A stretch of DNA of 34,234 nucleotides from Thermoplasmatota archaeon. Lineage in GTDB: Archaea; Thermoplasmatota; Poseidoniia; MGIII; CG-Epi1. The position numbers and the translations under genes were made by a program. A model generated the notes under the pieces. It was not told the DNA's origin. It ran no database searches and saw nothing but the letters and a program-made list of their open reading frames with translations. This document shows positions 2,981-31,233 of this stretch, one piece after another. The stretch covers positions 1 through 34,234 of the forward strand of contig JAYYHK010000048.1 of the NCBI GenBank assembly GCA_036148495.1. Direction: 5' to 3'. How positions within the stretch are numbered: position 1 is the stretch's first letter; each line of letters starts with the position of its first letter.

Positions 2981-5980
<3,000 letters not shown>

Positions 5981-8447: not shown

Positions 8448-9026
8448 TTATCTCTGACCTCTGCCATCCAATGCAGAAATTACAATTGCTAAACCAGCTA
8501 TAAATTTACGATTAAAGTTATTTTCGGGCGGAATATTGACAATCAGTTTTCTAATTATTGGATTAAATTTCTGCCTCATAGTGATAGGATTATCATTTCC
8601 CATGGTATGAAGCGTATATTTTTTAGGTAGAATTCCTAGAAAAACTCTTCTAGCAATTGCTTGAGCCATGCTGTCTTCTAATAACATTCCAATATCATTG
8701 CCATCTGGATCAAGAACTTGCCATTTAGTTCTAAGAATGGATTTCCAAAATTTTCTTCTTACAGTTCCCAATAAGATTCCTGCTTTAGGATCAAAAATAT
8801 CGAATCCCCCCCATGCATCTACTAAGTTCCTTTGCTTGATAACCAACCATTCGTTGTTTTTATTTTCGTCGTCATAAAGTCTGATGTCCTCTTTAATTCT
8901 AAATCTTTTTTGCTCACAGAACCCATATAATTGACCATTTTCATCCATAATGTGAAATTTATTTCCAAATATCTTTAGAAATTTTTCACGAATTAGATAT
9001 TGATTTAGTTCAGTCAGTTTTGCCAT
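8448..9026 (-). CDS. Phospholipid scramblase / LURP1-like (tubby-C-like fold) protein. Start moved to the ATG at 9026.
   Basis: Repeating beta-hairpin pattern F.I.DENG..., FDIFDPKAG.LLG.V.RK, W.VLDPDGNDIG.L, plus a C-terminal hydrophobic helix KFIAGLAIVISAL, as in the scramblase/LOR family. The GTG at 9035 lies only about 15 nt from the TATA-like element. The ATG at 9026 gives about 24 nt. Confidence 0.45.
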   Translation of the reverse strand: MAKLTELNQYLIREKFLKIFGNKFHIMDENGQLYGFCEQKRFRIKEDIRLYDDENKNNEWLVIKQRNLVDAWGGFDIFDPKAGILLGTVRRKFWKSILRTKWQVLDPDGNDIGMLLEDSMAQAIARRVFLGILPKKYTLHTMGNDNPITMRQKFNPIIRKLIVNIPPENNFNRKFIAGLAIVISALDGRGQR

Positions 9027-9043
9027 AGTTTGCACAGAATCTC

Positions 9044-10760: not shown

Positions 10761-12335
10761 ATGGAACCAATATCGCATGAGGGATTAGGCAGACTTCTAA
10801 ATTTAGATAGCAATCTGCAAACTCCACACATCGTATTCAGTCGAACAGAACTAAGTGAATCTGGTAATCTGGAGACTGGCGGTACCATAAAGATAGGTAA
10901 AGTATTTGATTTACCACCAAGTCCACTTGGATTAGATTCAGATAAACCACCATATTTGCAACTGTCAAAAGATATTGCAGTCATTGATAATGCATATTCA
11001 CTTCAACCTAAAAAGTTAGTAGAAATAGCCTCAACGTTCAGAAAAGAGGCAGGTTTTTCTAGATTAATTTATGCACCTGCAGTTGAACCTTCTCAAATGC
11101 CTATTCTAGCTTATTTAGGCGTAGATATTTTCGATGATTTAAATGTTGAATTACGTAGCTCGACTGGTTGGGTTTTGGAAAGCGGTGAATGGATTAAAAA
11201 TAATGGAAAGATTGATGATTTGTTTGCACACAATAAAGAAGAGTTAAATCGCTGGATTTTAAGAATTCGAAACGCGTTGTTGAATGGAAAATTAAGGGAA
11301 TTAGTAGAAGTGACAAGCCTTCACAATCCTCGAGTTTCGCAGATATTATACCATTCAACTCAGTTGTTGATTGATAAAGGAGCTAAAGTAAAATCAAACA
11401 TAAGATCAAATGATTTAAGTTTAAATCATCCTGCAATTGTTGATTTCCAGGATAGACTATCTAATTATGAGCCTCCAGCAAAGAATATGGTTTTGTTAAT
11501 ACTTCCATGTTCAGCAAGAAAACCATATTTCAAGAGCAGCAGTCACAAACGATTTTTTAATGCGCTTCGTGAGGTGGATAACTATCTGGCATTACATGTT
11601 GTATCTGTTACGTCGCCATTAGGTTTAGTTCCAAGAGAATTAGAATTTTGTTATCCCGCAGCTCACTACGACATCGCAGTAACTGGAAAGTGGAGTGCTT
11701 CGGAAATTGAGATGCTCAGAAACCAGTTAATTAAGCTCAATCCCAAAGAGCATTATGCGAAGGCAATTGTTCATGCAGGTTCTTCATCTAAGATTATGAC
11801 TAATCTGATAAAAGAATTAGGAATTGAAGTAGTGGATACTAGAGTAGAGAAACCTTCTTCTTATGAAGGATTAGAAATTCTTCAAAACGTTGCAAGAATG
11901 TCACTAACAGGTATTCCATTGCTAAATACTAAAGACAGAGCTCACGGAGAAGCTAGAGGTTTAGCTAAATTTCAATATGGTGAAATGTCAGATTTTTTGA
12001 TTAAATCAGAAATAAGCGGACGCATGCCTTACAAATTACGCTGTGGCGATTTTGCTGCAATGTCTCCATTAGTCGGAGGCTTTGGTTTAACCTTGAATGG
12101 AGCAATAACATATGCGTCACAGGGAGGTCCAATTGTAGTTGCTGAAGATTTTAAGTTAATTGGAGATTTATTTGCAGTAGGTGTAAAATCTTACAAAGGC
12201 AACTGGAATATTGGAGATCAAGTGGTTATAAAGCAGAATGATGAAGTTACTGCAGTGGGAATTGCAAAAATGGTTCCAGAAGAAATGATTTCAATGAATA
12301 GAGGAGTTGCAGTAGAGGTTAGACATCATGTCTGA
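10761..12335 (+). CDS. arcS: Archaeosine synthase (TgtA2/ArcS-like) with a C-terminal PUA domain
   Basis: The ArcS signature PC-x3-KPY-x2-S-x2-H is present as LPCSARKPYFKSSSHKRF (nt 11505 onward). The C-terminal GDQVVIKQNDEVTAVGIAKM is PUA-like. The adjacent radical-SAM partner gene overlaps it. Confidence 0.8.
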   Translation: MEPISHEGLGRLLNLDSNLQTPHIVFSRTELSESGNLETGGTIKIGKVFDLPPSPLGLDSDKPPYLQLSKDIAVIDNAYSLQPKKLVEIASTFRKEAGFSRLIYAPAVEPSQMPILAYLGVDIFDDLNVELRSSTGWVLESGEWIKNNGKIDDLFAHNKEELNRWILRIRNALLNGKLRELVEVTSLHNPRVSQILYHSTQLLIDKGAKVKSNIRSNDLSLNHPAIVDFQDRLSNYEPPAKNMVLLILPCSARKPYFKSSSHKRFFNALREVDNYLALHVVSVTSPLGLVPRELEFCYPAAHYDIAVTGKWSASEIEMLRNQLIKLNPKEHYAKAIVHAGSSSKIMTNLIKELGIEVVDTRVEKPSSYEGLEILQNVARMSLTGIPLLNTKDRAHGEARGLAKFQYGEMSDFLIKSEISGRMPYKLRCGDFAAMSPLVGGFGLTLNGAITYASQGGPIVVAEDFKLIGDLFAVGVKSYKGNWNIGDQVVIKQNDEVTAVGIAKMVPEEMISMNRGVAVEVRHHV

Positions 12336-13380
12336 AGCCTTCGTTCCTTTGACTGATTTTGTTAACGAATCAAAATCAATACCAAGAGATCATCCCTTAG
12401 ATAAACCTGTAGCAAAATGGACCGAAGAAGAAGTCTTAAACGGAGAAATTGTAGAAGCTGGCGTAGTAATTTTGAGGACAAGAGGTTGTTATTGGTCAAT
12501 TAAAGAAGGTTGTTCAATGTGCGGTTATTTCAATGATACAGTCCCGGGAGGAGTTAGTGATGATATGCTTCGTGAGCAATGGAAGAGGGTCAGACCGATC
12601 TTAAAGGGAAAGAAATATGCTAAAATCTACACTTCAGGTTCATTTATAGATCCTACAGAAGTTCCATTTGAATTTGCAAATGAAGTTATGTCAGATTTAT
12701 CAGATATGGGAGTTGAAAAAGTTCTCATAGAATCACTACCCGAATTTGTAAATCCTAAGAATTTTAATTATGAAAAAGCTCCAAAATTAGAAATCGCCAT
12801 AGGATTAGAATCTTCAAATCCTGTAGTTTTAGACAAATCAGTTAACAAGCGATTACGCTGGCCACATTTTGTAAAAGTTTGTAAACTTGCTCGTGACAAC
12901 GGGGCTGAGGTCAAAGCGTATATTTTGCTTAAGCCTCCTTATCTTAGCGAGAAAGAAAGTATTGACGACGCAGTAAAGTCGGCAATTGATGCAGCCCCTC
13001 ATGTCGATAAAATTTCGATTAATCCTGTAAATGTTCAGAAAAACACTGTTGTTGAAAAATTATGGTTTAGAAATGAGTGGGTAGCTCCCTGGCTCTGGTC
13101 AGTAGTAGATGTTCTAAAAAAGTGTGAAGATTTACCAATTAGAGTCTATTCAGATCCAACTGGAGGTGGAACTCGAAGAGGTGCCCACAATTGCCATGAT
13201 TGCAACAAAAAAATATTGCAAGCGCTGAAAAATCATCGTTTAGGCTTAGGAGATTTGAAGGGATTACATTGTAATTGTAAATCTCGCTGGGATGTTTTGG
13301 TGCAACAATCTAACTTAAGGAGGAACGGGTCTGAACCACATGGTTATCGTAGCGGTTTTTCAGGCAGCAGGCATTTTTAA
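12328..13380 (+). CDS. raSEA: Radical SAM enzyme for archaeosine formation (RaSEA-like)
   Basis: ILRTRGCYWSIKEGCSMCGY cysteine cluster, a radical-SAM-like TIM-barrel pattern (IYTSGSF, IGLES), and a C-terminal CHDC...CNC cluster. It overlaps arcS by 8 nt (ATGTCTGA). Confidence 0.7.
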   Translation: MSEAFVPLTDFVNESKSIPRDHPLDKPVAKWTEEEVLNGEIVEAGVVILRTRGCYWSIKEGCSMCGYFNDTVPGGVSDDMLREQWKRVRPILKGKKYAKIYTSGSFIDPTEVPFEFANEVMSDLSDMGVEKVLIESLPEFVNPKNFNYEKAPKLEIAIGLESSNPVVLDKSVNKRLRWPHFVKVCKLARDNGAEVKAYILLKPPYLSEKESIDDAVKSAIDAAPHVDKISINPVNVQKNTVVEKLWFRNEWVAPWLWSVVDVLKKCEDLPIRVYSDPTGGGTRRGAHNCHDCNKKILQALKNHRLGLGDLKGLHCNCKSRWDVLVQQSNLRRNGSEPHGYRSGFSGSRHF

Positions 13381-15172: not shown

Positions 15173-16030
15173 ATGTCAGATTCTGATAAAATAGAAATAC
15201 CTGAGGCCGCTAAAGATGTAGGACTCGCACTAGGCAGTGTTCTTCTAGTTTTCTTAGTTACTTTTGCTTACAGCGGTAATTGGCCACCGATGGTAGTTAT
15301 TGAGTCAGGTTCAATGGAACATTCAGACAATCCATTGTATAAAGAACCAGGTTTTACACATATTGGAACAATTGACACGGGTGATTTAGTAGTAGTTAAA
15401 GAAGCTAAAAAATCAGATATTGTAACATATTTGCAAGGTAAAAAGACAGACTACAAAAAATATGGAGATTATGGGGATGTCATTGTTTATTACAAAAATG
15501 GAATAAAAGAAGTTGATGGTAGTCCTGTTACTCCAGTTATTCATAGAGCTATGGCTTGGGTAGAGGTTTTAGAGGAACCAAAAGATATGAATGGCGATAA
15601 TATAACGGATTATTATTACATTCCTGGAATAGACAGTTATTTTGGTCCAAAGATAGAATTCTCTGAAATAGGTCTCAGCGGAGGTGCACATTTGAAAGAT
15701 TTACAAAATTCAGGTTATATTACTAAAGGAGATTCTACAGGAAATCCTCACCCAGATCAGTTAACTCACAGAGACATTAACAATGATCCAGTTCAACCAG
15801 TAGACCCAGATTGGGTAGTTGGCATGGCAAGAGGTGAACTTCCTTGGTTTGGTTTAATTAAATTAAAAGTAACTCAACCTGATAACTACGACAAAGCACC
15901 CTCAGGTTGTAAATCAATGCTTTGGATTTCAGTGATAGTAATATTGGTGGGACCTTACTCAGTAGGTAAAGTATTAGAGGTACGAGATCAAAGAGCTAAA
16001 TTAGTTACTAAAGAGAAGAGTAAACGTTAA
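15173..16030 (+). CDS. Signal peptidase I, archaeal/ER Sec11 type (S26B)
   Basis: N-terminal TM helix, Ser box ESGSMEHS, His box PVIHRAM, the GD box YITKGDSTGNPHPDQ, and a C-terminal TM helix. Confidence 0.8.
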   Translation: MSDSDKIEIPEAAKDVGLALGSVLLVFLVTFAYSGNWPPMVVIESGSMEHSDNPLYKEPGFTHIGTIDTGDLVVVKEAKKSDIVTYLQGKKTDYKKYGDYGDVIVYYKNGIKEVDGSPVTPVIHRAMAWVEVLEEPKDMNGDNITDYYYIPGIDSYFGPKIEFSEIGLSGGAHLKDLQNSGYITKGDSTGNPHPDQLTHRDINNDPVQPVDPDWVVGMARGELPWFGLIKLKVTQPDNYDKAPSGCKSMLWISVIVILVGPYSVGKVLEVRDQRAKLVTKEKSKR

Positions 16031-19475: not shown

Positions 19476-22400
19476 CTATGTTCTTTTGGATCTATAGCTA
19501 ACGTATGCTAATCCACCAACAAGTCCAACAACTACAAGAGCAATCATTCTGAAAGAATTGTCATCGTCATCAGATACTGAGCTGACAGAAATTGTGATAG
19601 CCTTTTCGTTATTTGTCGAGTCTACCTCGTTCAAGGTTACAGAGGGGTCAATTGCAACTCTCAATGGGTGTGAGCCCTTTGTAGCAGTCCATGTAGCCGT
19701 TACGGTAACTTCTTCATCATCAGTTCCCTCAAAAAGGATAGTAGTTACGTTGAAAGGCTCGTCACCATCATAAAATACAATAGGTACATTGTGAATTCCT
19801 GTGTTGTTTACTAGGTTAGAAATTGTAGCAGTTAATGTTACTTCAGTTCCTACTGTAGGAACTTCAGGGTTCCACAATAACTCGGATACAGTAAAGTCAG
19901 GACTTTGTGCTTCTATTGGCGTCACACCTATCTCAAATGTATGCGTTACGTCATCGACTTGGTTATCGCTTCCGTCGGTCCAGGAAACAGTAACACTGAA
20001 TGTTTCTTTTTCATTCACTGTTACAGTTTGATCTGGAGTTATCTTCAATTCAGAAGTTACATTTTCTCCAAAATTAACACCCCATTTGTTTGGAACAAAT
20101 TCAGCAGTCCAATTACTTGGGATGCTATCTACACTTAGTTCATAGATAGTGTTTAAGTGACCGTTTGAAGAACCGTTGAAATTGAAAGTTACAGTTTGAC
20201 CCAATGCAACATTAGCTTCGGTTCTATCGACATTAACTTCAATTCCTCTCATCAGTTTCTTTTCGACAGTCTGATTTTGAAGAACACCGTCTTTCTCATC
20301 AGTAATATTTGCATTACTATTTAGATTGTAAACATAATCCTGTTCACCAGACAAGTCTTTGTGTTCACTTACTAGGCTGTAAATTCCGTCAGGAACCGTA
20401 ACATCTAGAATACCATTGTTAACCTCAATTTCAAAGCTAAAATTATCACCGTCCATTTCTATTTCATCGAAATCAATAGTTTCAGAATCTGCTGAAGAAA
20501 GATATGTTTCTCTAAAATTAATACCACGATTTAATGACGCATTTAGAGTAAATGCCCCTTCTAGTTCTAATTCAGCTATGTCGACATAACTAGTATCTTC
20601 ATTTGAATAAATCCAATATTGGTATGCACCAGTGTAAAGGTAGATTTCGTATTCTCCATTTTCGTCGGCCGTGGCATTAAATTGAACATTAGTACCTGCC
20701 ATGTTCCATATTTCTATTTCTGAATTTGGTAATAAGTCATCGGTATTAGCCACTCCATTGAAATCACGATCGTAAAATACTGTACCTGATAATTTTACTC
20801 TCCAATCAGATTCTCTTTTGAATGTTTGTTGTTCTTTTCCAGCTTTAACATTTAGGTTTTGAGCATTCAATTTAAAGCGTTCATTATCTCCATCTTCAAA
20901 GTGAGTCATTTCTATTTCATATGTTCTTGGAATCATATCAGAAAGAGTGATAGTTCCGTTCTCATCAGTAGTGAACGTTTCATCGTAATCAGCGAAAGAG
21001 TTTGTAAATCTTACATTAGCATTAGAAACAGGTAATTTACTTCCAGTTGCATTATTGTAAGTAACTTCCAAAGTGACGTTAACGGCGGTAGGATCTAACG
21101 TAATAGTATATTTGTCAGTGTCACCATCTACTACAAAATTATCTTCGAATAGCTCATACCCTTCAACATCTACTACAACAGAATATAGTCCATTAGGTAA
21201 ATCAATTTTGCCATAATCTATCGTGGAACCAAATAGCCCCTCGTCGGCAATTGTTTCGGTAATAAATACTATGTTATCTTCAGATTCAAATCGTACTTCT
21301 ATGGCGTTACCTTGTATTAAATCACCATCAGATGAAGAGATTACTTCACCTCTAAAGTTACCCTCATTTTTTAAGGTTAAATTATATTCTCTAGCGCTAT
21401 TTATAGTAACGGCACCGAGGAAGCTGTAGTGTTTGCTGCTAACTCCGTCTTGGAAGCTTACGTAGTAGTTTCCTTGTGACAAGCTTCCGGAGTATCCTTC
21501 AAACTTAGTGATATCGAATGTAGTAGAATTATCAGAATCACTTACAGGAGTAAAGGTAACCATTCCGTCTTCAGTAATATCATTCAAAGTTGCAAATCCA
21601 CTAATATCATATTTCTTTTCAGCACTTACATTTCCTAGGTCAAGGTTATCTTGTCCAATTTCAATATCAATTTGACCTAATGCAAAATATCTTGTTCCAT
21701 TTTCATGGTATGAAAACGAGTAAAGATAATTATCAGGAGGTAAAATTACGTCTGTCAGCATTCCGTCACCATCAGTACTAAAGTTTAGGAAGTATGAAGG
21801 ATCAGAAATTGGAGAGAATGAAATATCGGCATTAGCAATACCGCTGTTTTCAAACACAAATTTGCCTTGAATGTTTGTAGGAATACGTGCCATTTCTACA
21901 ATTAATTCTTTCTCAGCATTTAGTTCGAAATCTGTTATCTCTACTCGACTATTATTTGTTTCGGTAGACATTTCATATATTTTTTCAAAGGTATATCCAT
22001 ATTTTTGGGCACTTATTTCATATGAATTTATTGGTAATGTAATCATGATGCTGGGGTCTGAAGCCCATACGTTTAGAGCTCCAGTTGTTTCTCCGTCAAA
22101 ATTCACTAAGCCTTCTAGAGGAATTTCGTTACCTAAATGCTCTTCATACATTACGATTACTACATCCTGACCATAGTTGGAAGAAAGATTTGAATTTTCA
22201 TCTTCATCAGTCAAAATTACGGGTTGCAGTGCTACAAGATTTTGCCCATCTCCGCCTATGTGTGCATAGGCATTGTAAATACCTGCAGGCAAGATTAATT
22301 CATACTCACCATCAAAAGTACTAGTAGTGGATACGGTCCCACCTGCAGTAGAATCAAAAGTAATTTTAATATCTTCAAATCCTTTTTCATCATCGTCTAG

Positions 22401-25400
22401 AGTTTTACTTCCATTAACATCTTCGAATAATTTACCTTCAACAACATAACCGAGTCCCATTGCTGCAACAATAGGTAGTGAAATGGTATTACTATCGACG
22501 CGTTCTAAATATGCTAAGGTATCATTTCCTTTTTGGTGTAGCGTGAACAAGTCATAAGTTCCCTCTGGCAATACCGTGGCGAAGTAACCATTCTCATTGG
22601 TGAATACATTATAGCTATCAACTAAATTTACATTTCTTATTGATATTTGTTCATCAGCTATACCTTGACCAGCATGAGACAAAGTACCTTCAACCCGGAA
22701 TCCGTTTCTTAATGTAGCCTCATAGCCAAGAGAAGTACCTTTTTCAAGAGTAATATCGACACTATTATTTTGCCAATTAGCAGTATTATCAGCCAGTAAT
22801 CCTTCATTTTCTAGCCTTAAAGTGTAGTTACCAGGCAATAATTTTTCAAAACAGAAAGAAACTGGGCGATCATCGCCCTCATCTGGACAATCTGAGCCTT
22901 GTAGATAATTCTGATTCAAGAAAGTACTTTCTACAAGGCTACCGTTTGTTTCATCATACAATGATACTGTAATTTCAGTATTTCCTATTTCATCAGCAGA
23001 TAAAAATTGACCCCATATTGTACTTGGCTCTAGAGATTCTGTAATTTCAATGTCTTGGCCTGCACGAGTTGCAGAAGCGCCTAGATAGGAGCCTAGAGTA
23101 ATTTCGTGTTCTTCAACTACAGTTGTGATTGTATATTCACCTGGAGCTAGGCCTATGAATTCATACTTTCCGTTCGCATTTGTGTTGACAATTGTTTCTA
23201 CTCCTGAACGGATGTTAGTAGCTTTAATTGGTGTGACTGGCAGAGCTTCGTCTACACTTCCACTAAAAGTACCATCATCATCCATGTCCCAGAATAATCT
23301 TCCAGTGATGTTGGTAGGCTCAATTTCAATATCTATGTCAAATGTTGAGTTAACACCAGGGTATCTCATTGCAGCTTCCTCAGAAATATTTACTTTCAAT
23401 AAATCGTCTGCCGAGGTTCCTGTCAAAATATTATTGCTAACTTTTCTAATTTTTTCATCGTCTGAGGTTAATTCACCTATAGAAACAAATACACTTACAT
23501 TTCCGGCAACAGACAATACTGAATACTTCCCATTTTCATCAGTAGTAGTGCTGCCATGAGGAATTCCATATTCGTCTAAAATAGTTACATTTGCGTTGGC
23601 TACAGGATCACCATTTGGCGTTGAAACTGTACCTTGAATTGTTGCTCCATCGTAATATTTCAACATTCTTAATTGAGTACCTGATGATTTGATTAGCTTG
23701 AAGTGAGTCATGTTCCAGCCAGGTGCTGGCATCTTCCCTTCTTGTGCTATTGAACCTGTGATTCCAGGTATTCCATCCGAAATAGGTCGGCCGATATCTG
23801 TGGCAGACCATCCTATGAAAGCTCTAAAGAACATAGAGTTCAAAAATTGTTCTTTGTAGACAAGCACATCAGATTCGATAGTTAAAGAAGGGTTTGTCTT
23901 TAACAATTCGTTAATTTCATCGGCAGGTAAAGTTTGCCCGTTTGATAAAGTATATTGAACTTCTACATAGTCGTTGATATTGTAATCAGCCAAACTGATA
24001 GGTGCGTATAGAATTCCGGTTTGCCCTGGTTTTGGTCCATATGCCATCATTCTAGTATCGGCTGCAAAATATCGAATAGATTTACCAGTAATTTGCTCTA
24101 CTTCCCAAAGTAAATCTGAAATTGTAGTAATATCCATAGTCATTAGAATTACTTTACCAGCTCTAATTGCAGCATTTCTTTTGTTAACATCTTTTTCGCT
24201 TCCGTCAGAATTCTTAGGAATATAATCTTCTGGATTTGCTACGATATGTTCTAGTGCAGAAACATTCTCCTCATTTAGATATCCTTCTAAAATTTTACTT
24301 CTAACTTCAGAATTCAGTCTATCAGAGTCTCTACTTACTTCAGTCTCTAGAATCCTGTAAAGAAGGAGCGACATAGCTTCATGTTCAGACTGAGATGCGA
24401 TGAAATTACCTGCAATTTGGTAACCATATTGGAAATTATCAGCAACAGTAGGGTGCTCACCAATCTCAATTGCCCAGAATCCGTAATCCCACCAAGCCAT
24501 GAATCCAGGCCTATCTTCTGGAGCTTTTTCAGTATCTTGTTCAGCCAACCACTCAAGACCATCAATCCAATAGTCTGAAGGGAAAGAAGGCCCTGTGTTA
24601 CCCATGTACCATAACTGGTTCGAGCTTAAGTTAGGTGTATACATACCACCGACACCGTCAGGGTACAGAGTTTCATTGTTTCTTTGGCCGTAATCAAATT
24701 CTTCAGGTCTGAAGAAGTCATAACTTAGGAAATTGTAAATATCAGCGTCATGTTCTTTTTTATCTTCGTAGGGAACTCCAGCATCATAGCCATAGAATGT
24801 GTTTGGTAGGAATATGAATAAGCCAACGAAAAGAGCAACTAATGGCCTTTTTATTTCGAAGGATTTTCTTAACCCACTAATTCTATCACGGAAACGATAT
24901 TGGTCGATATCTTGAGCATCCATGTGCCCAATTACCATAATTAATACAATCAAAATAGTTGCAGTTAAAAGTCCAACTAGTACACTTATGGTAAAGAAGA
25001 ACCAAAATCCGATAGCAGCAGAAAGTAATGAAAGCCAGTAGAACAAGTTTCCACGTTTCCCCCAGTAGCTAGTCCATGTTTGTAATATAGCCGGGAAATC
25101 AGCCCATTGAATTATTAGCCAAGTCATCCAACCGCTTATTAGTGAAACAACAGGTGTTGCATTGAAAATAAAACGAACAGCTGACTGAGCCATAAATAAA
25201 GACACGAAAGCCCAGATCATTACAAACAGATAGTCTTTCTTCCACACACTTTGGTTGAATAGTTGATATGCCATCCAAATGACTCCGAAGATTGCCAACC
25301 AAATTGACACCGGCCCAAATGCAAATACAAAATCTGCAAATTCAGGAGGTTGAGCCTCAGCAATAGTATTGAAAAGTTTGGTTCTTACGAAATATCCTTG

Positions 25401-26558
25401 TCCACTGAATAGTAAGAATCCGAGTTCAGTGAAAACATATGTTAGTAGCAGGTAGAAGGCAAGGGCAACTAGTGCTGAACTTCCGATTACCAATAGCCAA
25501 GGTAAATCTCTAGTTGTCACCATCAATAAAGACATGATAACATAACCAAGCAAAATGTAAGCTGGAGCTTCCCACCAAGTATCGATGAAGCCCAATGTGT
25601 GGTAGTAAGGATAGGATAAAATTACAGGTAGACCTAGAGTGATTAATCCTATCATTCCGGTTGTTAAACTATCAACTCGTCTGAACGCATTGATTAACAT
25701 CTGAAAACCTAAGTAAATAGCAATGATTGCCATAATGTATGGGAATCCTTTCCAACTCATTGCAATCATAGCTATAGTCATACCTGCCAACCCGGCATAA
25801 CCTAGAGCTAGTTTTTCATTTTTAATCAAATCACTAAAACCTTTCTTAATACTATCAAAATTAGTCCAATCTGAAACCCACTTTCTATCATTAGATACAG
25901 TTAAAGCTCTCATAAAGAAAAAGAAAGTAGTAGTACCAAACAAAATTATGTATGAATCGTGATCAGCTAGAGCCAAACTTGAATGACTTACATGACTTGC
26001 GTTCACTCCAATTAAGAAGGCTCCAAGAAGTCCCGCTTCTTTACCAAATTGAGCTCTACCAATAGCATAAACAGGGAATACAATTAAAGCACCGTAAATT
26101 GCAGGTAATATTTGCATAGCCCACCAAACAGAATCTTCGGTTGAATCGAAAAGAGGTGAGAATATTAATCCAATTATTGCAATAGACCAATCGAATAACG
26201 GTGGACGGTTATTATTTGCACCATAAGGATAGTTTAGCATTGGATCTTTCTGCAGATGTTCACCGTTATCAACAACATGATCAACAACGTGTTTGTGGTA
26301 GTAAGGGTCACTACCTCCAGTTAATTGGTAGCCGTCTTCAGTCGCAGGTTCAGCAGTCCAAGCGGTTCTAATGTAAAGTGAAAATACAAAAATTAGAACT
26401 AGTAATCCTACAGTTCTCCAGTCAACTTTACTGGTTTTTTTAACAAGTCCTACTTTCTCAATACCTGCAGAGGGAGCTCTGCTGATAGAAGGAGTTGGGC
26501 GATTCTTGAAGCGACTCTTTACCTTAGAGTCACGTCGACGACGTGTTTGTCTTGCCAT
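19476..26558 (-). CDS. aglB: Giant (2360 aa) AglB/STT3-type oligosaccharyltransferase fused to about 1400 aa of carboxypeptidase-regulatory-like beta-sandwich repeats, a CARDB-like domain and a C-terminal TM anchor
   Basis: Catalytic WWDYG at aa 689-693 (nt 24480-24494). The EL5 motif TIAE is at nt 25356-25367. The first-loop acidic motif is SDPYYH (aa 83-88). The second motif is ADHD (DHD = nt 25956-25964). There are about 13 hydrophobic helices in aa 45-590. From aa ~970 there are repeated units of the type G.V....G.P...A.V.....G......TDENGKY. The CARDB-like segment is at about 19584-19916. The terminal helix is MIALVVVGLVGGLAYV, followed by RSKRT. Confidence 0.88.
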   Translation of the reverse strand: MARQTRRRRDSKVKSRFKNRPTPSISRAPSAGIEKVGLVKKTSKVDWRTVGLLVLIFVFSLYIRTAWTAEPATEDGYQLTGGSDPYYHKHVVDHVVDNGEHLQKDPMLNYPYGANNNRPPLFDWSIAIIGLIFSPLFDSTEDSVWWAMQILPAIYGALIVFPVYAIGRAQFGKEAGLLGAFLIGVNASHVSHSSLALADHDSYIILFGTTTFFFFMRALTVSNDRKWVSDWTNFDSIKKGFSDLIKNEKLALGYAGLAGMTIAMIAMSWKGFPYIMAIIAIYLGFQMLINAFRRVDSLTTGMIGLITLGLPVILSYPYYHTLGFIDTWWEAPAYILLGYVIMSLLMVTTRDLPWLLVIGSSALVALAFYLLLTYVFTELGFLLFSGQGYFVRTKLFNTIAEAQPPEFADFVFAFGPVSIWLAIFGVIWMAYQLFNQSVWKKDYLFVMIWAFVSLFMAQSAVRFIFNATPVVSLISGWMTWLIIQWADFPAILQTWTSYWGKRGNLFYWLSLLSAAIGFWFFFTISVLVGLLTATILIVLIMVIGHMDAQDIDQYRFRDRISGLRKSFEIKRPLVALFVGLFIFLPNTFYGYDAGVPYEDKKEHDADIYNFLSYDFFRPEEFDYGQRNNETLYPDGVGGMYTPNLSSNQLWYMGNTGPSFPSDYWIDGLEWLAEQDTEKAPEDRPGFMAWWDYGFWAIEIGEHPTVADNFQYGYQIAGNFIASQSEHEAMSLLLYRILETEVSRDSDRLNSEVRSKILEGYLNEENVSALEHIVANPEDYIPKNSDGSEKDVNKRNAAIRAGKVILMTMDITTISDLLWEVEQITGKSIRYFAADTRMMAYGPKPGQTGILYAPISLADYNINDYVEVQYTLSNGQTLPADEINELLKTNPSLTIESDVLVYKEQFLNSMFFRAFIGWSATDIGRPISDGIPGITGSIAQEGKMPAPGWNMTHFKLIKSSGTQLRMLKYYDGATIQGTVSTPNGDPVANANVTILDEYGIPHGSTTTDENGKYSVLSVAGNVSVFVSIGELTSDDEKIRKVSNNILTGTSADDLLKVNISEEAAMRYPGVNSTFDIDIEIEPTNITGRLFWDMDDDGTFSGSVDEALPVTPIKATNIRSGVETIVNTNANGKYEFIGLAPGEYTITTVVEEHEITLGSYLGASATRAGQDIEITESLEPSTIWGQFLSADEIGNTEITVSLYDETNGSLVESTFLNQNYLQGSDCPDEGDDRPVSFCFEKLLPGNYTLRLENEGLLADNTANWQNNSVDITLEKGTSLGYEATLRNGFRVEGTLSHAGQGIADEQISIRNVNLVDSYNVFTNENGYFATVLPEGTYDLFTLHQKGNDTLAYLERVDSNTISLPIVAAMGLGYVVEGKLFEDVNGSKTLDDDEKGFEDIKITFDSTAGGTVSTTSTFDGEYELILPAGIYNAYAHIGGDGQNLVALQPVILTDEDENSNLSSNYGQDVVIVMYEEHLGNEIPLEGLVNFDGETTGALNVWASDPSIMITLPINSYEISAQKYGYTFEKIYEMSTETNNSRVEITDFELNAEKELIVEMARIPTNIQGKFVFENSGIANADISFSPISDPSYFLNFSTDGDGMLTDVILPPDNYLYSFSYHENGTRYFALGQIDIEIGQDNLDLGNVSAEKKYDISGFATLNDITEDGMVTFTPVSDSDNSTTFDITKFEGYSGSLSQGNYYVSFQDGVSSKHYSFLGAVTINSAREYNLTLKNEGNFRGEVISSSDGDLIQGNAIEVRFESEDNIVFITETIADEGLFGSTIDYGKIDLPNGLYSVVVDVEGYELFEDNFVVDGDTDKYTITLDPTAVNVTLEVTYNNATGSKLPVSNANVRFTNSFADYDETFTTDENGTITLSDMIPRTYEIEMTHFEDGDNERFKLNAQNLNVKAGKEQQTFKRESDWRVKLSGTVFYDRDFNGVANTDDLLPNSEIEIWNMAGTNVQFNATADENGEYEIYLYTGAYQYWIYSNEDTSYVDIAELELEGAFTLNASLNRGINFRETYLSSADSETIDFDEIEMDGDNFSFEIEVNNGILDVTVPDGIYSLVSEHKDLSGEQDYVYNLNSNANITDEKDGVLQNQTVEKKLMRGIEVNVDRTEANVALGQTVTFNFNGSSNGHLNTIYELSVDSIPSNWTAEFVPNKWGVNFGENVTSELKITPDQTVTVNEKETFSVTVSWTDGSDNQVDDVTHTFEIGVTPIEAQSPDFTVSELLWNPEVPTVGTEVTLTATISNLVNNTGIHNVPIVFYDGDEPFNVTTILFEGTDDEEVTVTATWTATKGSHPLRVAIDPSVTLNEVDSTNNEKAITISVSSVSDDDDNSFRMIALVVVGLVGGLAYVSYRSKRT

Positions 26559-26658: not shown

Positions 26659-27948
26659 TTAAGATGAAGGTTGTATTTCACCAATACAATTTCCAAATCC
26701 AATCTTGTAACCTTTTCCTTTACAGAAACCTTTCAAAGTTATAACATCGCCATCTTCCAAGAAAGTTCTTTTTTCACCATTAGGAAGTGTAATTGGTTCT
26801 TTCCCACCCCATGCAATTTCTAGCATAGAACCTCGACTGTCTTTGTCAGGTCCGGAGATAGTTCCACTTGCTAATAGGTCCCCTGTTCGTAAATTACAAC
26901 CCGTGATTGTATGATGCGCAATCTGTTGAGCCATATTCCAATACAAATAGTTGTAATTTGTTCTAGATATTACGCAGGATTCATTCATTTCTTTAGTTTG
27001 CAAGTGTACTTCTAGTTCAATATCAAAATTGTGATCATTTTTATTTTTTAAGTAGTCAAAGGGTTCAGGTTCTTGCTTTGGGCTCTTACATCTGAACGGT
27101 TCCAGAGCTTCTAGAGTAATTATCCAAGGAGATATAGACGTTACAAAGTTTTTTGCTAGAAAAGGTCCTAGTGGGATATATTCCCATGTTTGAATATCTC
27201 TTGCTGACCAATCGTTAACTAAAGATAATCCAAAAACATGATTTTCAGCTTCATCTACGGGAATAGGTTCTGAAAGTAAATTGCCTGAACCAATCAAAAC
27301 CCCCATCTCAAGTTCAAAATCTAGTCTTTTACAATCACCAAAAACAGGCTCATCAGAATTTGGTGGCTTGGTCTGACCTTTTGGCCTAACAATGTCAGTT
27401 CCACTTAGCACAACGGACGAGGCACGACCATGATATCCTACAGGAATATGGAGCCAATTCGGCATCAAAGCAGCGTCAGGCCCTCTGAACATTGTTCCAA
27501 CATTTGTGGCGTGTTCTCTAGATGAATAAAAATCAGTATAATCTCCAACATCAACTGGCAATTCCATGTTGACGTTTTCCTTTGGAATTACGGCGATTTT
27601 TCTCAATTCTTCGTTGTCACGTAGCATAGGATTATCTTCACTTAAGACTTCACTAATTTTCATTCGGGTCTCTTTCCATGCTTTTCTTCCCATTGACATA
27701 AATGCGTTCAATGTAGGTTCATGGAAAATTTCAGCATCTTCTATTTCAGTACCTTCAAAGATTCCAGCGTCATCCAAGTGGGCTAAATCAATTACGAAAT
27801 CACCAATTGCAGTTACAACATGCAAGTCTCCGCCTTCTTTTGGGCTACAGACTCCAAAAGGTATATTCTGAATAGGGAAATCAGAATTTTCGTCTACATT
27901 TATCCAAGATTTTAGATTTGAATCGTGTGTTTTGTCCATTACATCCAT
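26659..27948 (-). CDS. fahA: Fumarylacetoacetase (long, eukaryote-like form with an N-terminal domain)
   Basis: The N-terminal FPIQNIPFGV motif, then DFYSS..H..N.G, GYHGRASS, LDFELEMG, FGL.L.NDWSARDIQ.WEY.PLGPF..K.F. The protein is 429 aa. An alternative ATG at 27939 would give a TAATG overlap with the upstream gene. Confidence 0.9.
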   Translation of the reverse strand: MDVMDKTHDSNLKSWINVDENSDFPIQNIPFGVCSPKEGGDLHVVTAIGDFVIDLAHLDDAGIFEGTEIEDAEIFHEPTLNAFMSMGRKAWKETRMKISEVLSEDNPMLRDNEELRKIAVIPKENVNMELPVDVGDYTDFYSSREHATNVGTMFRGPDAALMPNWLHIPVGYHGRASSVVLSGTDIVRPKGQTKPPNSDEPVFGDCKRLDFELEMGVLIGSGNLLSEPIPVDEAENHVFGLSLVNDWSARDIQTWEYIPLGPFLAKNFVTSISPWIITLEALEPFRCKSPKQEPEPFDYLKNKNDHNFDIELEVHLQTKEMNESCVISRTNYNYLYWNMAQQIAHHTITGCNLRTGDLLASGTISGPDKDSRGSMLEIAWGGKEPITLPNGEKRTFLEDGDVITLKGFCKGKGYKIGFGNCIGEIQPSS

Positions 27949-28946
27949 CCTAATTGTTTTAAGTCATCCATGGGCTCTTGAAAAGAGCAACTGCCAAATG
28001 AAATTCCATTATTTTGTCTGCTTTTTTCAATTGTTTCATTCCCAATTTCAAATCTGGAATCACGATCATCTCCCACCTTCCATACCATTTTATCTTCTAA
28101 AAATTCAAAGTCGTCTTCGTTTTGGCAATCAATCATGTGTGCCAATAAAATAAACATTCGAAATTTTTCTTGTTCATTTCCAGGTTTAGGAAATGTCGTA
28201 GCGAATGCACTAGCACTAAACATATTTATGAATCCATGCATTTCAGTATCGTATTCGTTTGAATGATGTCTCAATGGATGATGTAATCCTGCAGTAAATT
28301 TGAGAGGAACATTGTAGATGCTACAATTTTGTATCATCGCAGCGACCTGTTCAACAGATGGAAAAGCCTCTTTCACAATTCCTCCACACCTGATCTTTAT
28401 TCCCGTATTACCTAGAGTTGAAATCATTTTAATTGTTGGTGTAATTTTTTCATCCCATTCCCCATCATCTTCATTTGTAGCATAATTTATCCCAACATAC
28501 GGCAGCTCAGGAAATTCATGGTAATGTTCAAGATTGTTTGAATTTAGAATTTCAATAACACTTGTCATTGTATTTTTTGAAGGTGATGTGGAAGGTAGTT
28601 TAGTTTCTATGACTTCAATTGAAATTTTTCCCTTATGTTTTTCTCTGTAATCATTAATCATATCAATTTCTTTTTTGGTTTGGTGAAGAAATTCTCTATC
28701 TGAATTAGTTTGTCCACCCAAAACAGACAATTTTAATGTTCCAATCCCGTCAAACTTTGGAATGAATTCTTCTAAATCTTTTAGTTGGGATACAGGCATG
28801 ATAAATCTTCCTAGAATCCATTTTTTATTATCTTTGAAATGAGAAATATACTCAGCTACAGCCTCATTCAAAGGTAACTTGGCAGGAGGAAATAGACCAG
28901 CATAGTCTATCAACCCATTCATGAGTGTTTGAAGACTATTTTTCAT
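27939..28946 (-). CDS. Uncharacterised 335-aa protein embedded in the homogentisate operon; function unknown
   Basis: The ORF is intact and compositionally like its neighbours. It starts 5 nt after the HGD stop, and its end overlaps the FAH start by 10 nt. Local motifs are DYAGLFPPAKLP, IRCGG and KFTAGLHHPLRHH. I cannot assign a family. Confidence 0.6.
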   Translation of the reverse strand: MKNSLQTLMNGLIDYAGLFPPAKLPLNEAVAEYISHFKDNKKWILGRFIMPVSQLKDLEEFIPKFDGIGTLKLSVLGGQTNSDREFLHQTKKEIDMINDYREKHKGKISIEVIETKLPSTSPSKNTMTSVIEILNSNNLEHYHEFPELPYVGINYATNEDDGEWDEKITPTIKMISTLGNTGIKIRCGGIVKEAFPSVEQVAAMIQNCSIYNVPLKFTAGLHHPLRHHSNEYDTEMHGFINMFSASAFATTFPKPGNEQEKFRMFILLAHMIDCQNEDDFEFLEDKMVWKVGDDRDSRFEIGNETIEKSRQNNGISFGSCSFQEPMDDLKQLGWM

Positions 28947-28951
28947 CTAAT

Positions 28952-30136
28952 TTATTCGCCTAGAGCGTCTTTGTAACCTTCACCATCGAGCCAGGATTTT
29001 GAATAATCAGGATCTTCAACTTTTAGAGCATATTTAGCAACTTTTAGTGGATAATGAGTGTCAACCATCACAGCTAACTCATCGGTCCATTTTGCTCCGA
29101 TAGATGCTTCATATTTTCCAGGATGAGGGCCGTGTGTCAAACCATCAGGATGTAAGGTCATTGACCCAAATTCCACACCTTTTCTAGACATAAATTCCTT
29201 TGAATCGTAGTAAATAACTTCATCAGACATAATATTTGCATGATTATATGGTGCAGGAATTGCATTTTTGTCAAAATCAAACGGTCTAGGGCAGAATGAG
29301 CAAACTACAAATCTGTCACTAGCAAATGTTTGATGAACGGGTGGAGGTTCATGGATTCTACCAACAATAGGCTCAAAGTCATGTATGCTGAACGCAAATG
29401 GATAGTAATATCCATCCCATCCAACAACATCACAAGGATGGTGTCCTAGAGTTACTTCCGTGAATCTGTTTCTTTGTTTCACAATAATCTTGAATTCACC
29501 TTTTTCATCGTGAGGAACTAATTCATCAGGTCCTCTGAAATCACGTTCAGAATATGGGCTCCTCTCGATGATTTGGCCGTATTCATTTCTATATCTTCGA
29601 GGAGTTCGAACTTCACCAGGTGATTCTACAATCAAAAGCGAGTGCTCTTCGTCATTCATTACATATTTGTGCAAAATACCTCTTGGAATCACTAGGTAGT
29701 CTCCAGAGGAATATTTCATATTTCCAAAAGCAGTCTCTAGAGTTCCACTTCCTTGACTAACGTAAATTATTTCGTCACCCTGGGCATTTCGATAATAATA
29801 ATCATCATTTTTGTCAGGATAGCACATCATCATTACAACATCGTTGTTGAACAAGAAAGGTTTTCTGTCCATAATTGCGCTTCCCCCCTTATCAGCTCTA
29901 TTTGTGTAAAAATGCCTCATTCTGAGACTTTTATCGTCGTCTTCTTCAAGTGTAAAACTTCCGATTTCTTTAGTCGATAAAACTTCTGTGGGTGGATATA
30001 TGTGATACAAAAGTGAAGAAGGACCAACAAATCCTTTGTTTCCTTTTAATTCTTCATGGTATATATTTCCATTATCATCTCTAAATACTGTGTGTCTTTT
30101 CTTAGCTACTTTTCCTAGTTTATGATATCTGTGCAT
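28952..30136 (-). CDS. hmgA: Homogentisate 1,2-dioxygenase (short, about 390-aa form)
   Basis: The N-terminus Y..LG...KRHTVFRD..G..YHEEL.G..GF.G.SSLLYH..PPT and the cupin-type core with His/Glu-rich segments (IHEPPPVHQTF, LHPDGLTHGPHPG) fit HGD. Its ATG shares one base with the HPPD stop (TAATG). Confidence 0.8.
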   Translation of the reverse strand: MHRYHKLGKVAKKRHTVFRDDNGNIYHEELKGNKGFVGPSSLLYHIYPPTEVLSTKEIGSFTLEEDDDKSLRMRHFYTNRADKGGSAIMDRKPFLFNNDVVMMMCYPDKNDDYYYRNAQGDEIIYVSQGSGTLETAFGNMKYSSGDYLVIPRGILHKYVMNDEEHSLLIVESPGEVRTPRRYRNEYGQIIERSPYSERDFRGPDELVPHDEKGEFKIIVKQRNRFTEVTLGHHPCDVVGWDGYYYPFAFSIHDFEPIVGRIHEPPPVHQTFASDRFVVCSFCPRPFDFDKNAIPAPYNHANIMSDEVIYYDSKEFMSRKGVEFGSMTLHPDGLTHGPHPGKYEASIGAKWTDELAVMVDTHYPLKVAKYALKVEDPDYSKSWLDGEGYKDALGE

Positions 30137-31233
30137 TACAGGTTACCTCTCTCTGCTTGGTGTCTTTCAATTGCTTCAAATAATGCCTTAAAGTTTCCAA
30201 CTCCAAAGCCTCTCGATCCTTTTCTTTGTATAACTTCGTAGAATACAGTCGGTCTATCCTCTACAGGCTTAGTGAATAACTGCAGTAAGTATCCCTCATC
30301 ATCTCGATCAACTAGTATTTTCAATTTGCGGAGGACTTCGATGTCTTCATCGATTGCTCCGACTCTATTAGTCAAATCTTCATAGTAAGTATCTGGAACT
30401 TCTAAAAATTCAACTCCGTTTTCTTTCAGTTTTCCAATGGTTTTGATTATGTCGCTTGTTAGTAAAGCGATATGCTGGACACCAGCCCCATCATAGAATT
30501 CTAAGTATTCATCAATTTGTGATTTTCTTTTGCCTTCAGCAGGTTCATTGATTGGGAATTTGATTCTTCCATTGTCACTTTCCATCACTTTAGACATCAG
30601 TGCAGAATATTCAGTGGAAATATCATCATCACTAAAGGCTTGAATTTGTGAGAATCCCATCGTGTCTGCGTAGAAATTAACCCAATCTTCCATTTTGCCT
30701 AATTCCACATTACCGACGATATGATCAATAAATTTTAATCCAACGTTTTCACCTTCGATTTTGCTTTCTACGAATCCAGGTAAAAAGGGTCCATCGTAAT
30801 CATCGTGGGAAATGAAAGAGTGAACAGTTTCTCCGTATGTATAAATTGAAGCTTTGGTTATACTTCCGTTGTCATCACTAATAGTTTCAGGTTCTTTAGC
30901 ACTTTTCGCTCCACGAGCTACACATGCTTCGTAACATGCCTTTGCATCATCAACGTGAAACGCAATATCCTTTACACCATCACCGTGCCTTCTAATGTGC
31001 TCAGATAATTCATTATTTCCGTTGAGTGGGGTGGAAAAGACCATTCGTATTCGGCCCTGCTCTAGAACGTAACTAGCTTTCTCTCTGTCGCCTGTCTCTA
31101 AACCAGAGTATGCAATTTGATTATATCCGAATGCTTTTCGATAGTAGTAGGCAGCTTGCTTTGCATTACCCACATAAAACTCAACGTGATGTACAGCTTT
31201 AAGTGGAACTGGGTCTTTACTCATTATTTTCAC
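30136..31233 (-). CDS. hppD: 4-hydroxyphenylpyruvate dioxygenase
   Basis: [24 protein letters not shown], the C-terminal [31 protein letters not shown]. The protein is about 365 aa. The start is either the GTG at 31233 or the ATG at 31224. Confidence 0.92.

Follow-up and report, generated by a model that had tools for sequence, protein, structure and literature searches.

The window analysed here, a stretch of 34,234 nucleotides, is Poseidoniales archaeal DNA and carries a full-length archaeal 23S rRNA at positions 2998-5965. The list of open reading frames and the reading of the gene junctions reveal a tightly coupled operon on its minus strand, which belongs to the homogentisate route, the universal aerobic pathway of tyrosine and phenylalanine breakdown. 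The first step is encoded by HPPD (30136-31233), which matches TIGR01263 at 2e-140 (468 bits, cutoff 277); its listed start is the GTG at 31233, the ATG at 31224 being a likely alternative. The second step is represented by HGD (28952-30136, 394 aa) of the short archaeal/Bacillus type. This protein scores above the cutoffs of Pfam HgmA_N (4e-15, 56 bits, cutoff 20) and HgmA_C (7e-6, 26.4 bits, cutoff 21) and, with 81 bits, far under the cutoff of 511 of NCBIfam TIGR01015; judging by these profile scores, it is a divergent short form. Then follows a 335-aa ORF (27939-28946), whose product, referred to below as X335, is by its context and structure model a TIM-barrel protein and a candidate for the third step, that of maleylacetoacetate isomerase. 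The last gene (26659-27948) encodes FAH, the canonical two-domain fumarylacetoacetase of the fourth step, with a match to TIGR01266 at 3.9e-184 (612 bits, cutoff 375). The sequence-only reading had recognised HPPD, HGD and FAH as contiguous minus-strand genes, and both the ORFs and the Pfam and NCBIfam matches agree with this.

All these genes are co-oriented, and their junctions either overlap or measure 5 nt. HPPD and HGD are joined by a TAATG overlap. Between the HGD stop and the ATG of X335 lies the spacer attag (28947-28951, minus strand), in accordance with the 5 nt given in the sequence-only reading. The junction of X335 and FAH has the sequence ATGGATGTAATGG, so that the end of X335 and the start of FAH share 10 nt, counting from the first FAH ATG; if the second ATG, at 27939, is used as the start, the overlap is again TAATG. 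Both forms of this overlap had been pointed out earlier and are confirmed by the sequence, and in a related archaeal contig FAH is called at 426 aa with exactly the 1-nt (TAATG) overlap. The gene order HPPD-HGD-X335-FAH in the archaeal window is the order of the reactions, and some X335 operons elsewhere are also colinear with the pathway. No recognisable maleylacetoacetate isomerase gene is present in the window, and X335, the sole extra gene of the operon, occupies the place of the only pathway step without a gene.

X335 had been described as an ORF with no placeable motif, and the profile searches likewise gave no confident match to a characterised family. As a single sequence it matched no Pfam or NCBIfam family at E<=1 beyond noise, nor any PDB sequence beyond noise, and a profile of 53 X335 sequences retrieved only noise from Pfam, NCBIfam and PDB. 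Its homologues are named "hypothetical protein" in the databases; the one exception, the UniRef name 'Glutamate--cysteine ligase' on homologue P0214, was dismissed as lacking Pfam support. The homologues form 4,250 clusters at 50% identity and come from more than 590 species. As far as sequence comparison goes, X335 is thus a member of a previously undescribed family, and our full-text literature searches found no paper identifying this family or a gene of a non-GST maleylacetoacetate isomerase.

The evidence for the function of X335 comes from its genomic context. We collected 80 X335 loci from contigs, taking one genome per species; 71 of them were informative for FAH. In 63 of these 71 (about 15 phylum-level groups), the gene immediately downstream of X335, and on its strand, is FAH, often with gaps of -10, -4 or 0 nt; in one further informative locus FAH is split, and in two it is found within 3 kb. 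When 742 neighbour genes were clustered in an unbiased manner, only FAH (62 loci), HGD (22) and HPPD (15) proved recurrent, HGD being found within 6 kb of X335 in only 22 of the 80 loci. The enrichment of homologues beside fahA and hmgA, which had been proposed as a check, is therefore observed, with HGD and HPPD as the sole recurrent neighbours other than FAH. Without exception, the FAH partners of X335 are canonical two-domain fumarylacetoacetases (TIGR01266), and the HGDs of Bacillales and other bacterial X335 loci are 48-55% identical to that of the window. In Priestia megaterium the complete tyrosine operon has the order HPPD-X335-FAH-aminotransferase-HGD-amino-acid permease, with a divergent AsnC regulator, and X335 is its sole gene without an assignment. 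In Krumholzibacteriia the order is X335-FAH-acetoacetate-CoA ligase, in one case (L040) with HPPD and HGD upstream of X335 as well; in these loci a known enzyme thus accounts for the reaction that follows FAH.

At least five homologues (L014, L036, L042, L048 and L069) have no FAH nearby. In L042, L048 and L069, X335 is found among methyltransferase, transporter or metallo-beta-lactamase genes, and a search for an alternative context in L014, L042, L048 and L069 revealed nothing coherent, the neighbours being methyltransferases, SAM synthetase, transporters, a metallo-beta-lactamase and an SMP-30-like protein. These few homologues away from FAH are what could be expected if X335 were unrelated to tyrosine catabolism and merely hitch-hiked with FAH. 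The adjacency, however, is kept from archaea to about 15 bacterial phyla, at 30-37% protein identity and with variable surrounding genes; neutral hitch-hiking would not persist over such distances, and we regard this explanation as extremely improbable.

According to the record titles, the 80 loci belong to Poseidoniales, Bacillales, Chloroflexota, Planctomycetota, Verrucomicrobiota, Acidobacteriota, Ignavibacteria, Rhodothermia/Balneolia and others, with only two proteobacterial loci, both without FAH, and one cyanobacterial locus. Thus, the family is mostly bacterial, not archaeal-specific, and occurs in lineages most of which are not known to make glutathione. The cyanobacterial locus, that of Moorena, is an HPPD-X335-FAH-HGD cluster; cyanobacteria produce glutathione, and therefore the absence of glutathione is not a strict correlate of X335.

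The zeta-GST (MaiA, HmgC, GSTZ1; TIGR01262; EC 5.2.1.2) catalyses the reaction predicted for X335, at the same position in the pathway, and is linked to fahA and hmgA in the same way. To our knowledge, the isomerase of the homogentisate route is known only as this glutathione-dependent enzyme, while the majority of prokaryotic phyla are not known to produce glutathione. The zeta-GST consists of thioredoxin-like and helical domains (GST_N/GST_C), whereas X335 is a TIM barrel without sequence relationship to it, lacks the glutathione-binding motif, has no GST match in Pfam or NCBIfam at E<=1, and is distributed mainly outside Proteobacteria and eukaryotes. As a probe for the enzyme itself we used a GSTZ1 sequence confirmed as TIGR01262 at 8e-92. 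Neither the window nor the 80 X335 loci contained a tblastn match to it below E=0.3; at the level of loci the zeta-GST is absent from the window and from about 0.85 Mb of X335 loci. For the window, the earlier remark that nothing GST-like is present thus holds.

A second sample was anchored on FAH: the motif GDYTDFY retrieved 120 metagenomic loci, not ranked by similarity, of which 79 had at least 900 nt upstream. Among these 79, X335 is located upstream of FAH in 26, the zeta-GST adjoins FAH in seven, and no locus contains both. In this sample alone, the exclusivity is not significant (p = 0.089); pooled with the X335-anchored loci, it gives a Fisher p = 0.0008. In 46 of the 79 loci the fragment carries neither of the two, and therefore X335 is not universal. 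No third recurrent isomerase candidate was found in these FAH loci: their top neighbour clusters turned out to be spurious antisense ORFs of high-GC DNA, and the real recurrent neighbours (SHMT, RelA/SpoT, a flavin-reductase-like protein and a 405-aa protein) are arranged in a manner unrelated to catabolism.

As to the structure, the AlphaFold (AF2) model of X335 (pLDDT 93.5) is a (β/α)8 TIM barrel, and a second, independent AF2 model, that of a 33%-identical homologue (pLDDT 92.1), has the same topology. DSSP analysis of the model places the strands at residues 13-15 (beta1), 45-51 (beta2), 71-76 (beta3), 108-116 (beta4), 140-144 (beta5), 181-186 (beta6), 215-218 (beta7) and 317-319 (beta8), with helices between them and an additional three-stranded beta insertion at residues ~280-302, ahead of beta8. 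All top Foldseek matches of both models in the PDB are TIM barrels, of a generic kind (TM <=0.47, ~10% identity). The sequence-only reading, relying on the beta/alpha periodicity, had expected a barrel and not a GST, and the models and Foldseek do give a TIM barrel. No superfamily assignment was reached from these searches with the two models. X335 is, then, a conserved (beta/alpha)8 protein that resembles an enzyme and is encoded within an operon, and its sole near-universal genomic partner is canonical FAH.

The best, though weak, structural matches are the DRE-TIM metallolyases (pyruvate carboxylase CT domain, 4-hydroxy-2-oxovalerate aldolase, HMG-CoA lyase) and the class I aldolase barrels (DERA, LacD and others), which align with both models at Foldseek E ~1e-4 and TM 0.3-0.47. 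Pyruvate carboxylase CT and HOA aldolase gave weak values of E from 7.5e-5 to 1e-3 and TM 0.30-0.39, and the class I aldolases, also weak, E from ~1e-4 to 1e-3. These best matches are barrels that stabilise enolates or enamines. They do so with oxo acids, by means of a metal or of a lysine on beta6, and X335 has D14, K184 (invariant, on beta6), K216 (invariant, on beta7) and H222-H223. The metal ligands of DRE-TIM enzymes are an Asp on beta1 and a His-x-His after beta7; D14 and H222-H223 of X335 are in comparable positions, but their spacing is different, and the D-R-E signature at beta1 is replaced by IDYAGLFPPA. Furthermore, the identity to these barrels is only ~10%, the insertion before beta8 is extra in X335, and neither X335 nor 52 homologues matched Pfam HMGL-like (PF00682), DeoC or aldolase families at E<=1.

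Conserved residues were located in an alignment of 128 family sequences sharing at most 50% identity (A3) and in a further alignment, A2, together with the DSSP strands; all coordinates below refer to the minus strand. The invariant polar residues E114, E144/147, K184, R186, K216, H222 and C320 are at strand C-termini, and, judged from the secondary structure of the model, D14, E114, E144, K184/R186, K216/T218 and C320 are at the strand C-termini or one residue further. The motif I13-D-Y-A-G-L-F-P-P-A22 (28881-28910) covers beta1 and the following loop, with A16, G17, P20 and P21 invariant and D14 and Y15 shared by 90% or more of the sequences. The invariant acidic residue E114 (28605-28607; A3) is near the C-terminal end of beta4. 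At the end of beta5, E144-F-P-E147 (28506-28517) contains a conserved acidic residue, the invariant position being E144 in alignment A2 and E147 in A3. K184-I-R186-C-G-G189 (28380-28397) forms the C-terminal end of beta6, with K184, R186 and G188 invariant. In K216-F-T-A-G-L-H-H-P-L-R-H227 (28266-28301), which spans beta7 and the loop behind it, K216, T218, G220, H222 and P224 are invariant, and at least 90% of the sequences retain H223 and R226. Finally, G318-S-C320-S-F322 (GSCSF; 27981-27995, codons checked) directly follows beta8, and its C320 is the sole invariant cysteine of the family in A2 and A3. The sequence-only reading had singled out the motifs IRCGG and KFTAGLHHPLRHH; both are present in X335, the former as IKIRCGG, but the cysteine of IRCGG is not conserved. 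C187 was rejected as a catalytic cysteine because it is Thr in Bacillales.

This arrangement bears upon the possibility that X335 is a non-catalytic partner of FAH, i.e., a chaperone, scaffold or regulator. Translational coupling and the conserved adjacency to FAH could be explained in this way; nevertheless, the modelled TIM barrel with invariant Lys, His, Glu, Arg and Cys at what would be its catalytic face points to an enzyme, and in organisms with maiA (seven loci) FAH works without X335. Such a role seems highly improbable to us.

Taken in its genomic context, X335 is probably the non-GST, glutathione-independent maleylacetoacetate cis-trans isomerase of the homogentisate operon. We also lean, by a little, toward the fuller proposal that the new TIM-barrel family is the sought isomerase and the one most commonly linked to FAH, ahead of the zeta-GST, and that it acts by covalent catalysis via C320. 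This reading would apply to environmental prokaryotes, among them Marine Group II/III archaea, Bacillales, Chloroflexota, Planctomycetota, Verrucomicrobiota and Acidobacteriota. The mechanism could be as follows. The conserved R186, R226, R310, K184 and K216 would bind the dicarboxylate substrate where the barrel opens at its C-terminal side, and the 4-oxo/4,6-dioxo group of the substrate would be polarised by a divalent metal on D14, E114, E144, H222 and H223 or by a lysine iminium. C320, the proposed nucleophile by analogy, would as a thiolate assume the role of the glutathione thiolate of zeta-GST and add to C2 of the enone; rotation about the C2-C3 bond in the enolate intermediate and elimination of the thiol would give fumarylacetoacetate, to be split by the co-translated FAH into fumarate and acetoacetate. 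The cysteine addition is an analogy, and metal-only or lysine-iminium mechanisms would fit equally well.

The closest parallel to such chemistry is maleate cis-trans isomerase of the Asp/Glu racemase superfamily, which isomerises a maleyl group without a cofactor, with an enzyme cysteine as the Michael nucleophile. The likeness to the invariant cysteine at the barrel mouth of X335 may be regarded as a mechanistic analogy: the fold and family differ from the X335 TIM barrel, no Pfam match exists, and the substrate is maleate, whereas a maleyl-diketo acid is predicted for X335. The mycothiol-dependent (MDMPI) and L-cysteine-dependent maleylpyruvate isomerases are non-GST enzymes of Gram-positives without glutathione; they have a DinB-like helical fold and act in the gentisate pathway, whereas X335 is a TIM barrel of the homogentisate route, and neither X335 nor its homologues matched DinB or MDMPI_N in Pfam. 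Their use of mycothiol or L-cysteine, and the production of bacillithiol by Bacillales, would suit a variant of our main reading, in which X335 is an isomerase employing a small thiol other than glutathione (bacillithiol, cysteine, coenzyme A or another). However, archaea and some 15 bacterial phyla share no single low-molecular-weight thiol, and an invariant protein cysteine is at hand in X335, which makes this variant rather improbable.

A more serious alternative, although still an unlikely one in our opinion, is that X335 acts in the same pathway but catalyses a different reaction on the substrate or product pool of FAH, for instance as a maleyl-/fumarylacetoacetate keto-enol tautomerase, a detoxifier of succinylacetoacetate-type side products or an acetoacetate-handling enzyme. 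In this case the isomerisation would proceed without an enzyme or with a low-molecular-weight thiol as its catalyst, or an FAH accepting the cis isomer would make it superfluous. Indeed, the tight linkage of X335 and FAH shows co-function and not which reaction is involved, Schiff-base aldolases and metallolyases, which make or break C-C bonds, are among the structural neighbours, and certain Bacillus strains were reported to use a maleylacetoacetate hydrolase route (Crawford 1976, cited by PMC4457819). Against this, several X335 operons already contain a bona fide acetoacetate-CoA ligase gene for the activation of acetoacetate, the FAH partner never departs from the canonical type, isomerisation alone among the canonical steps lacks a gene in complete operons, and X335 and the zeta-GST never occur in one locus.

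The assignment of X335 as the isomerase would also fill a gap that has been noticed before. Hagedorn and Chapman reportedly described, in J Bacteriol in 1985, glutathione-independent maleylacetoacetate and maleylpyruvate isomerase activities in Gram-positives including B. megaterium. A study of B. anthracis states that no maleylacetoacetate isomerase gene was identifiable (PMC4457819). Priestia megaterium, a cultured and genetically tractable carrier of X335, makes the hypothesis testable. If it is true, X335 would provide a clean new case of non-homologous isofunctional enzymes and a thiol-cofactor-free isomerase for pathway engineering, and a pathway hole would be closed in thousands of genomes and metagenome-assembled genomes. 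The reconstructions of the abundant marine archaea (Poseidoniales) would be corrected accordingly, aromatic amino-acid catabolism becoming in them a complete, operon-encoded trait.

Four consecutive ORFs, all on the minus strand of the window, encode 4-hydroxyphenylpyruvate dioxygenase (HPPD, 30136-31233; TIGR01263, 2e-140), a short form of homogentisate 1,2-dioxygenase (HGD, 28952-30136; passing the Pfam models HgmA_N and HgmA_C, far under the NCBIfam hmgA cutoff), the 335-aa protein X335 (27939-28946), which matched no family, and a canonical two-domain fumarylacetoacetase (FAH, 26659-27948; TIGR01266, 3.9e-184). The operon proposed in the sequence-only reading is thus borne out by ORFs and family matches, and its junctions are as described there: HPPD and HGD share a TAATG overlap, HGD and X335 are separated by 5 nt, and the X335 stop overlaps the start of FAH, forming another TAATG overlap if the second ATG of FAH is used, from which FAH is called on a related contig. 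TATA-like A/T boxes lie within the 64-nt and 100-nt gaps on either side of the block, which makes it plausible that the four genes are a transcription unit of their own. The HPPD ORF is listed from a GTG at 31233, the likely true start being an ATG three codons further (31224, MSKDP...); a TTTAATAA box is located ~55 nt upstream, inside the 64-nt gap that follows the M50 peptidase gene. As for the 394-aa HGD, its score of 81 bits against TIGR01015 (cutoff 511) indicates that the curated equivalog model misses this homogentisate dioxygenase of the archaeal/Bacillus type, and the pathway may be under-called by automated pipelines.

The remaining genes of the window are housekeeping ones. The window is archaeal: the locus is most closely related to Poseidoniales contigs of Marine Group III/II, and there is a full-length archaeal 23S rRNA gene (2998-5965, minus strand, 2703 bits), which accounts for the GC spike at 4-6 kb (0.51 vs ~0.38). 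No 16S rRNA, 5S rRNA or tRNA gene accompanies it anywhere in the 34-kb window, the rRNA arrangement being an unlinked one. Directly downstream of FAH lies a giant 2360-aa ORF (19476-26558, minus strand), whose orthologue on related contigs has STT3/AglB oligosaccharyltransferase, CarboxypepD_reg, SdrD_B and CARDB domains; the synteny of M50 peptidase, four-gene operon and giant AglB is kept in two Poseidoniales contigs (L083 and L084). The ORF running from the first base (1-2472, plus strand, listed with 823 aa) contains bacterial-type thrombospondin type 3 (TSP3) calcium-binding repeats, and its product is probably large and either secreted or located at the surface. For four ORFs encoding 116-350 aa (8097-8447, plus; 8448-9035, minus; 12328-13380, plus; 15173-16030, plus), Pfam gave no match at E<=1e-4.

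X335, which the sequence-only reading could not place, matched no family in Pfam, NCBIfam or the PDB sequences, either as a single sequence or as a 53-sequence profile. The family is large: an exhaustive HMMER scan yielded 4,250 clusters at 50% identity (E<=1e-3), 714 of them at E<=1e-30, and scanning species-representative genomes (one per species) gave homologues in more than 590 species. The only database name borne by family members, including those of Priestia megaterium, Paenibacillus, Peribacillus and Brevibacillus, is 'hypothetical protein'; the UniRef name 'Glutamate--cysteine ligase' on the Alkalihalobacterium chitinilyticum homologue (P0214) is backed by no Pfam family and is probably an annotation-transfer error.

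The AlphaFold2 model of X335, built from a mixed archaeal and bacterial alignment (pLDDT 93.5, pTM 0.92), has eight beta/alpha units, and the predicted fold is a TIM barrel, as the earlier suggestion of a barrel enzyme had anticipated, with a three-stranded beta element inserted ahead of beta8. The P. megaterium homologue, 33% identical to X335, was modelled independently (pLDDT 92.1) and has the same topology. Foldseek against PDB retrieved only generic TIM barrels (E about 1e-4, TM 0.3-0.47, about 10% identity), recurrently the carboxyltransferase domain of pyruvate carboxylase, 4-hydroxy-2-oxovalerate aldolase, DERA and other class I aldolases, so that X335 represents a new sequence family built on a fold already known. 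In 128 sequences with mutual identity of at most 50%, the invariant residues (X335 numbering) are A16, G17, P20, P21, E114, E147, K184, R186, G188, P196, K216, T218, G220, H222, P224, G238, G318 and C320, E147 giving way to E144 as the invariant column in another alignment; D14, Y15, H223, R226, H237, N241 and R310 are at least 90% conserved. The cysteine of the IRCGG motif noted in the sequence-only reading is not conserved in the family. Active sites of TIM barrels are situated at the C-termini of the strands, and it is to the C-termini of the predicted strands that the conserved polar residues map, so that in the model they look like an active site.

The neighbourhood of the family was analysed in the best 80 loci from species-representative genomes by tblastn and by an unbiased clustering in which all 742 neighbouring genes were compared with one another. 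The recurrent neighbours are FAH (62 loci), HGD (22) and HPPD (15), any other gene being found in at most 9. Of the 71 loci with sufficient DNA on the downstream side, 63 have FAH as the next gene downstream in the same orientation, many junctions overlapping by 4-10 nt; beyond these, FAH is split in one locus and lies within 3 kb in two. According to record titles, the loci belong to Poseidoniales archaea, Bacillales, Chloroflexota, Planctomycetota, Verrucomicrobiota, Acidobacteriota, Ignavibacteria, Rhodothermia/Balneolia, Krumholzibacteriia, Calditrichota, Gemmatimonadota, Armatimonadota and, in one case, a cyanobacterium. Proteobacteria contribute just two of the 80, both without FAH nearby. 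In two loci on Alcaligenaceae-binned contigs (L042, 5508-6476; L048, 5983-6969) the homologue has no FAH nearby and is surrounded by genes for SAM synthetase, methyltransferase and MFS and MatE transporters, which may represent a diverged function or mis-binned contigs.

The gene orders follow the pathway: HPPD-HGD-X-FAH in archaea, one Chloroflexota and one Acidobacteriota locus, HPPD-X-FAH-HGD in Bacillales, and X-FAH-acetoacetate-CoA ligase in Krumholzibacteriia, where one locus (L040) adds HPPD and HGD upstream of X. Cyanobacteria are a glutathione-making lineage, and the HPPD-X-FAH-(one gene)-HGD cluster of the cyanobacterium Moorena sp. (L017) indicates that the family is not strictly limited to organisms without glutathione. 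In the P. megaterium operon (CP107543.1, about 4.85 Mb), whose order is HPPD-X-FAH-aminotransferase-HGD-amino-acid permease beside a divergently oriented AsnC-type regulator, everything from uptake through FAH is assigned except the isomerisation, and X is the sole unassigned gene. The main rival explanation, that X335 performs another FAH-linked reaction, would share the adjacency to FAH, and we regard it as unlikely; that X335 is the isomerase of the homogentisate pathway seems to us rather probable.

The textbook enzyme for this step is the glutathione-dependent zeta-GST (MaiA). A zeta-GST sequence, validated as TIGR01262 at 8e-92, served as the probe; it confirmed the earlier remark that the window contains no GST-like sequence and found no match in the X335 loci, about 0.85 Mb in all. 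For a reverse sample not centred on X335, metagenome contigs were scanned for the FAH motif GDYTDFY, which gave 120 loci, every one confirmed as FAH; the 79 in which the contig extended 900 nt or more upstream of FAH were used for counting. X335 lies upstream of FAH on the same strand in 26/79 (33%), adjacent in 24 of the 26; zeta-GST is present in 7/79 (9%), usually directly downstream of FAH; no locus of the 79 has both, and 46 have neither. The mutual exclusivity is not significant in this sample alone (p = 0.089) and becomes significant on pooling with the X-anchored loci (p = 0.0008), although the two samples were drawn differently. The loci with neither gene mostly share one conserved arrangement, SHMT/FAH/flavin-reductase-like or RelA, which is unrelated to catabolism, and the isomerase of such genomes could be encoded anywhere in the genome. 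Many environmental FAH genes (L085-L204) have this non-catabolic setting, and their fragments carry no X335 and no zeta-GST: in 12 loci the gene immediately upstream is serine hydroxymethyltransferase, mostly in divergent orientation, and directly downstream is a 213-aa flavin-reductase-like protein (5 loci), a 405-aa unknown (7) or RelA/SpoT (4-5), examples being L089 1537-2178, L181 2428-3645 and L197 1226-2500.

What these data show is that X335, an enzyme-like predicted TIM barrel, is co-translated with FAH in homogentisate operons where no known isomerase is encoded. X335 departs from zeta-GST/MaiA, the DinB-type maleylpyruvate isomerases and maleate isomerase in every structural and sequence criterion, and has no HMM match to the DRE-TIM and class I aldolase families. 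By analogy with zeta-GST, which acts by glutathione thiolate addition, rotation and elimination, and with maleate isomerase, whose nucleophile is an enzyme cysteine, we propose that in converting maleylacetoacetate to fumarylacetoacetate C320 would add to the enone C2, conserved Arg and Lys residues would hold the two carboxylates, and the enolate would be stabilised either by a metal (D14, E114, E144, H222/H223) or by a Lys iminium (K184 or K216). The weak modelled kinship to enolate-/enamine-stabilising barrels is compatible with this mechanism without proving it. An external thiol cofactor common to the whole family seems unlikely, since its lineages differ in, or have no known, low-molecular-weight thiols.

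Work published in 1985 reportedly described maleylacetoacetate and maleylpyruvate isomerase activities of Gram-positive bacteria that need no glutathione, with no gene assigned to them. In a study of B. anthracis no maleylacetoacetate isomerase gene was identifiable, and an alternative hydrolase route was mentioned (PMC4457819). The literature searched contains no description of the X335 family; textbooks cover the reaction and its pathway but not this protein family. The isomerase assignment is supported, not proven, by its agreement with all the computational tests run, and X335 is probably a non-homologous isofunctional enzyme within an operon that is itself known. If this is true, the family would fill an acknowledged gap in the pathway that extends to many phyla.
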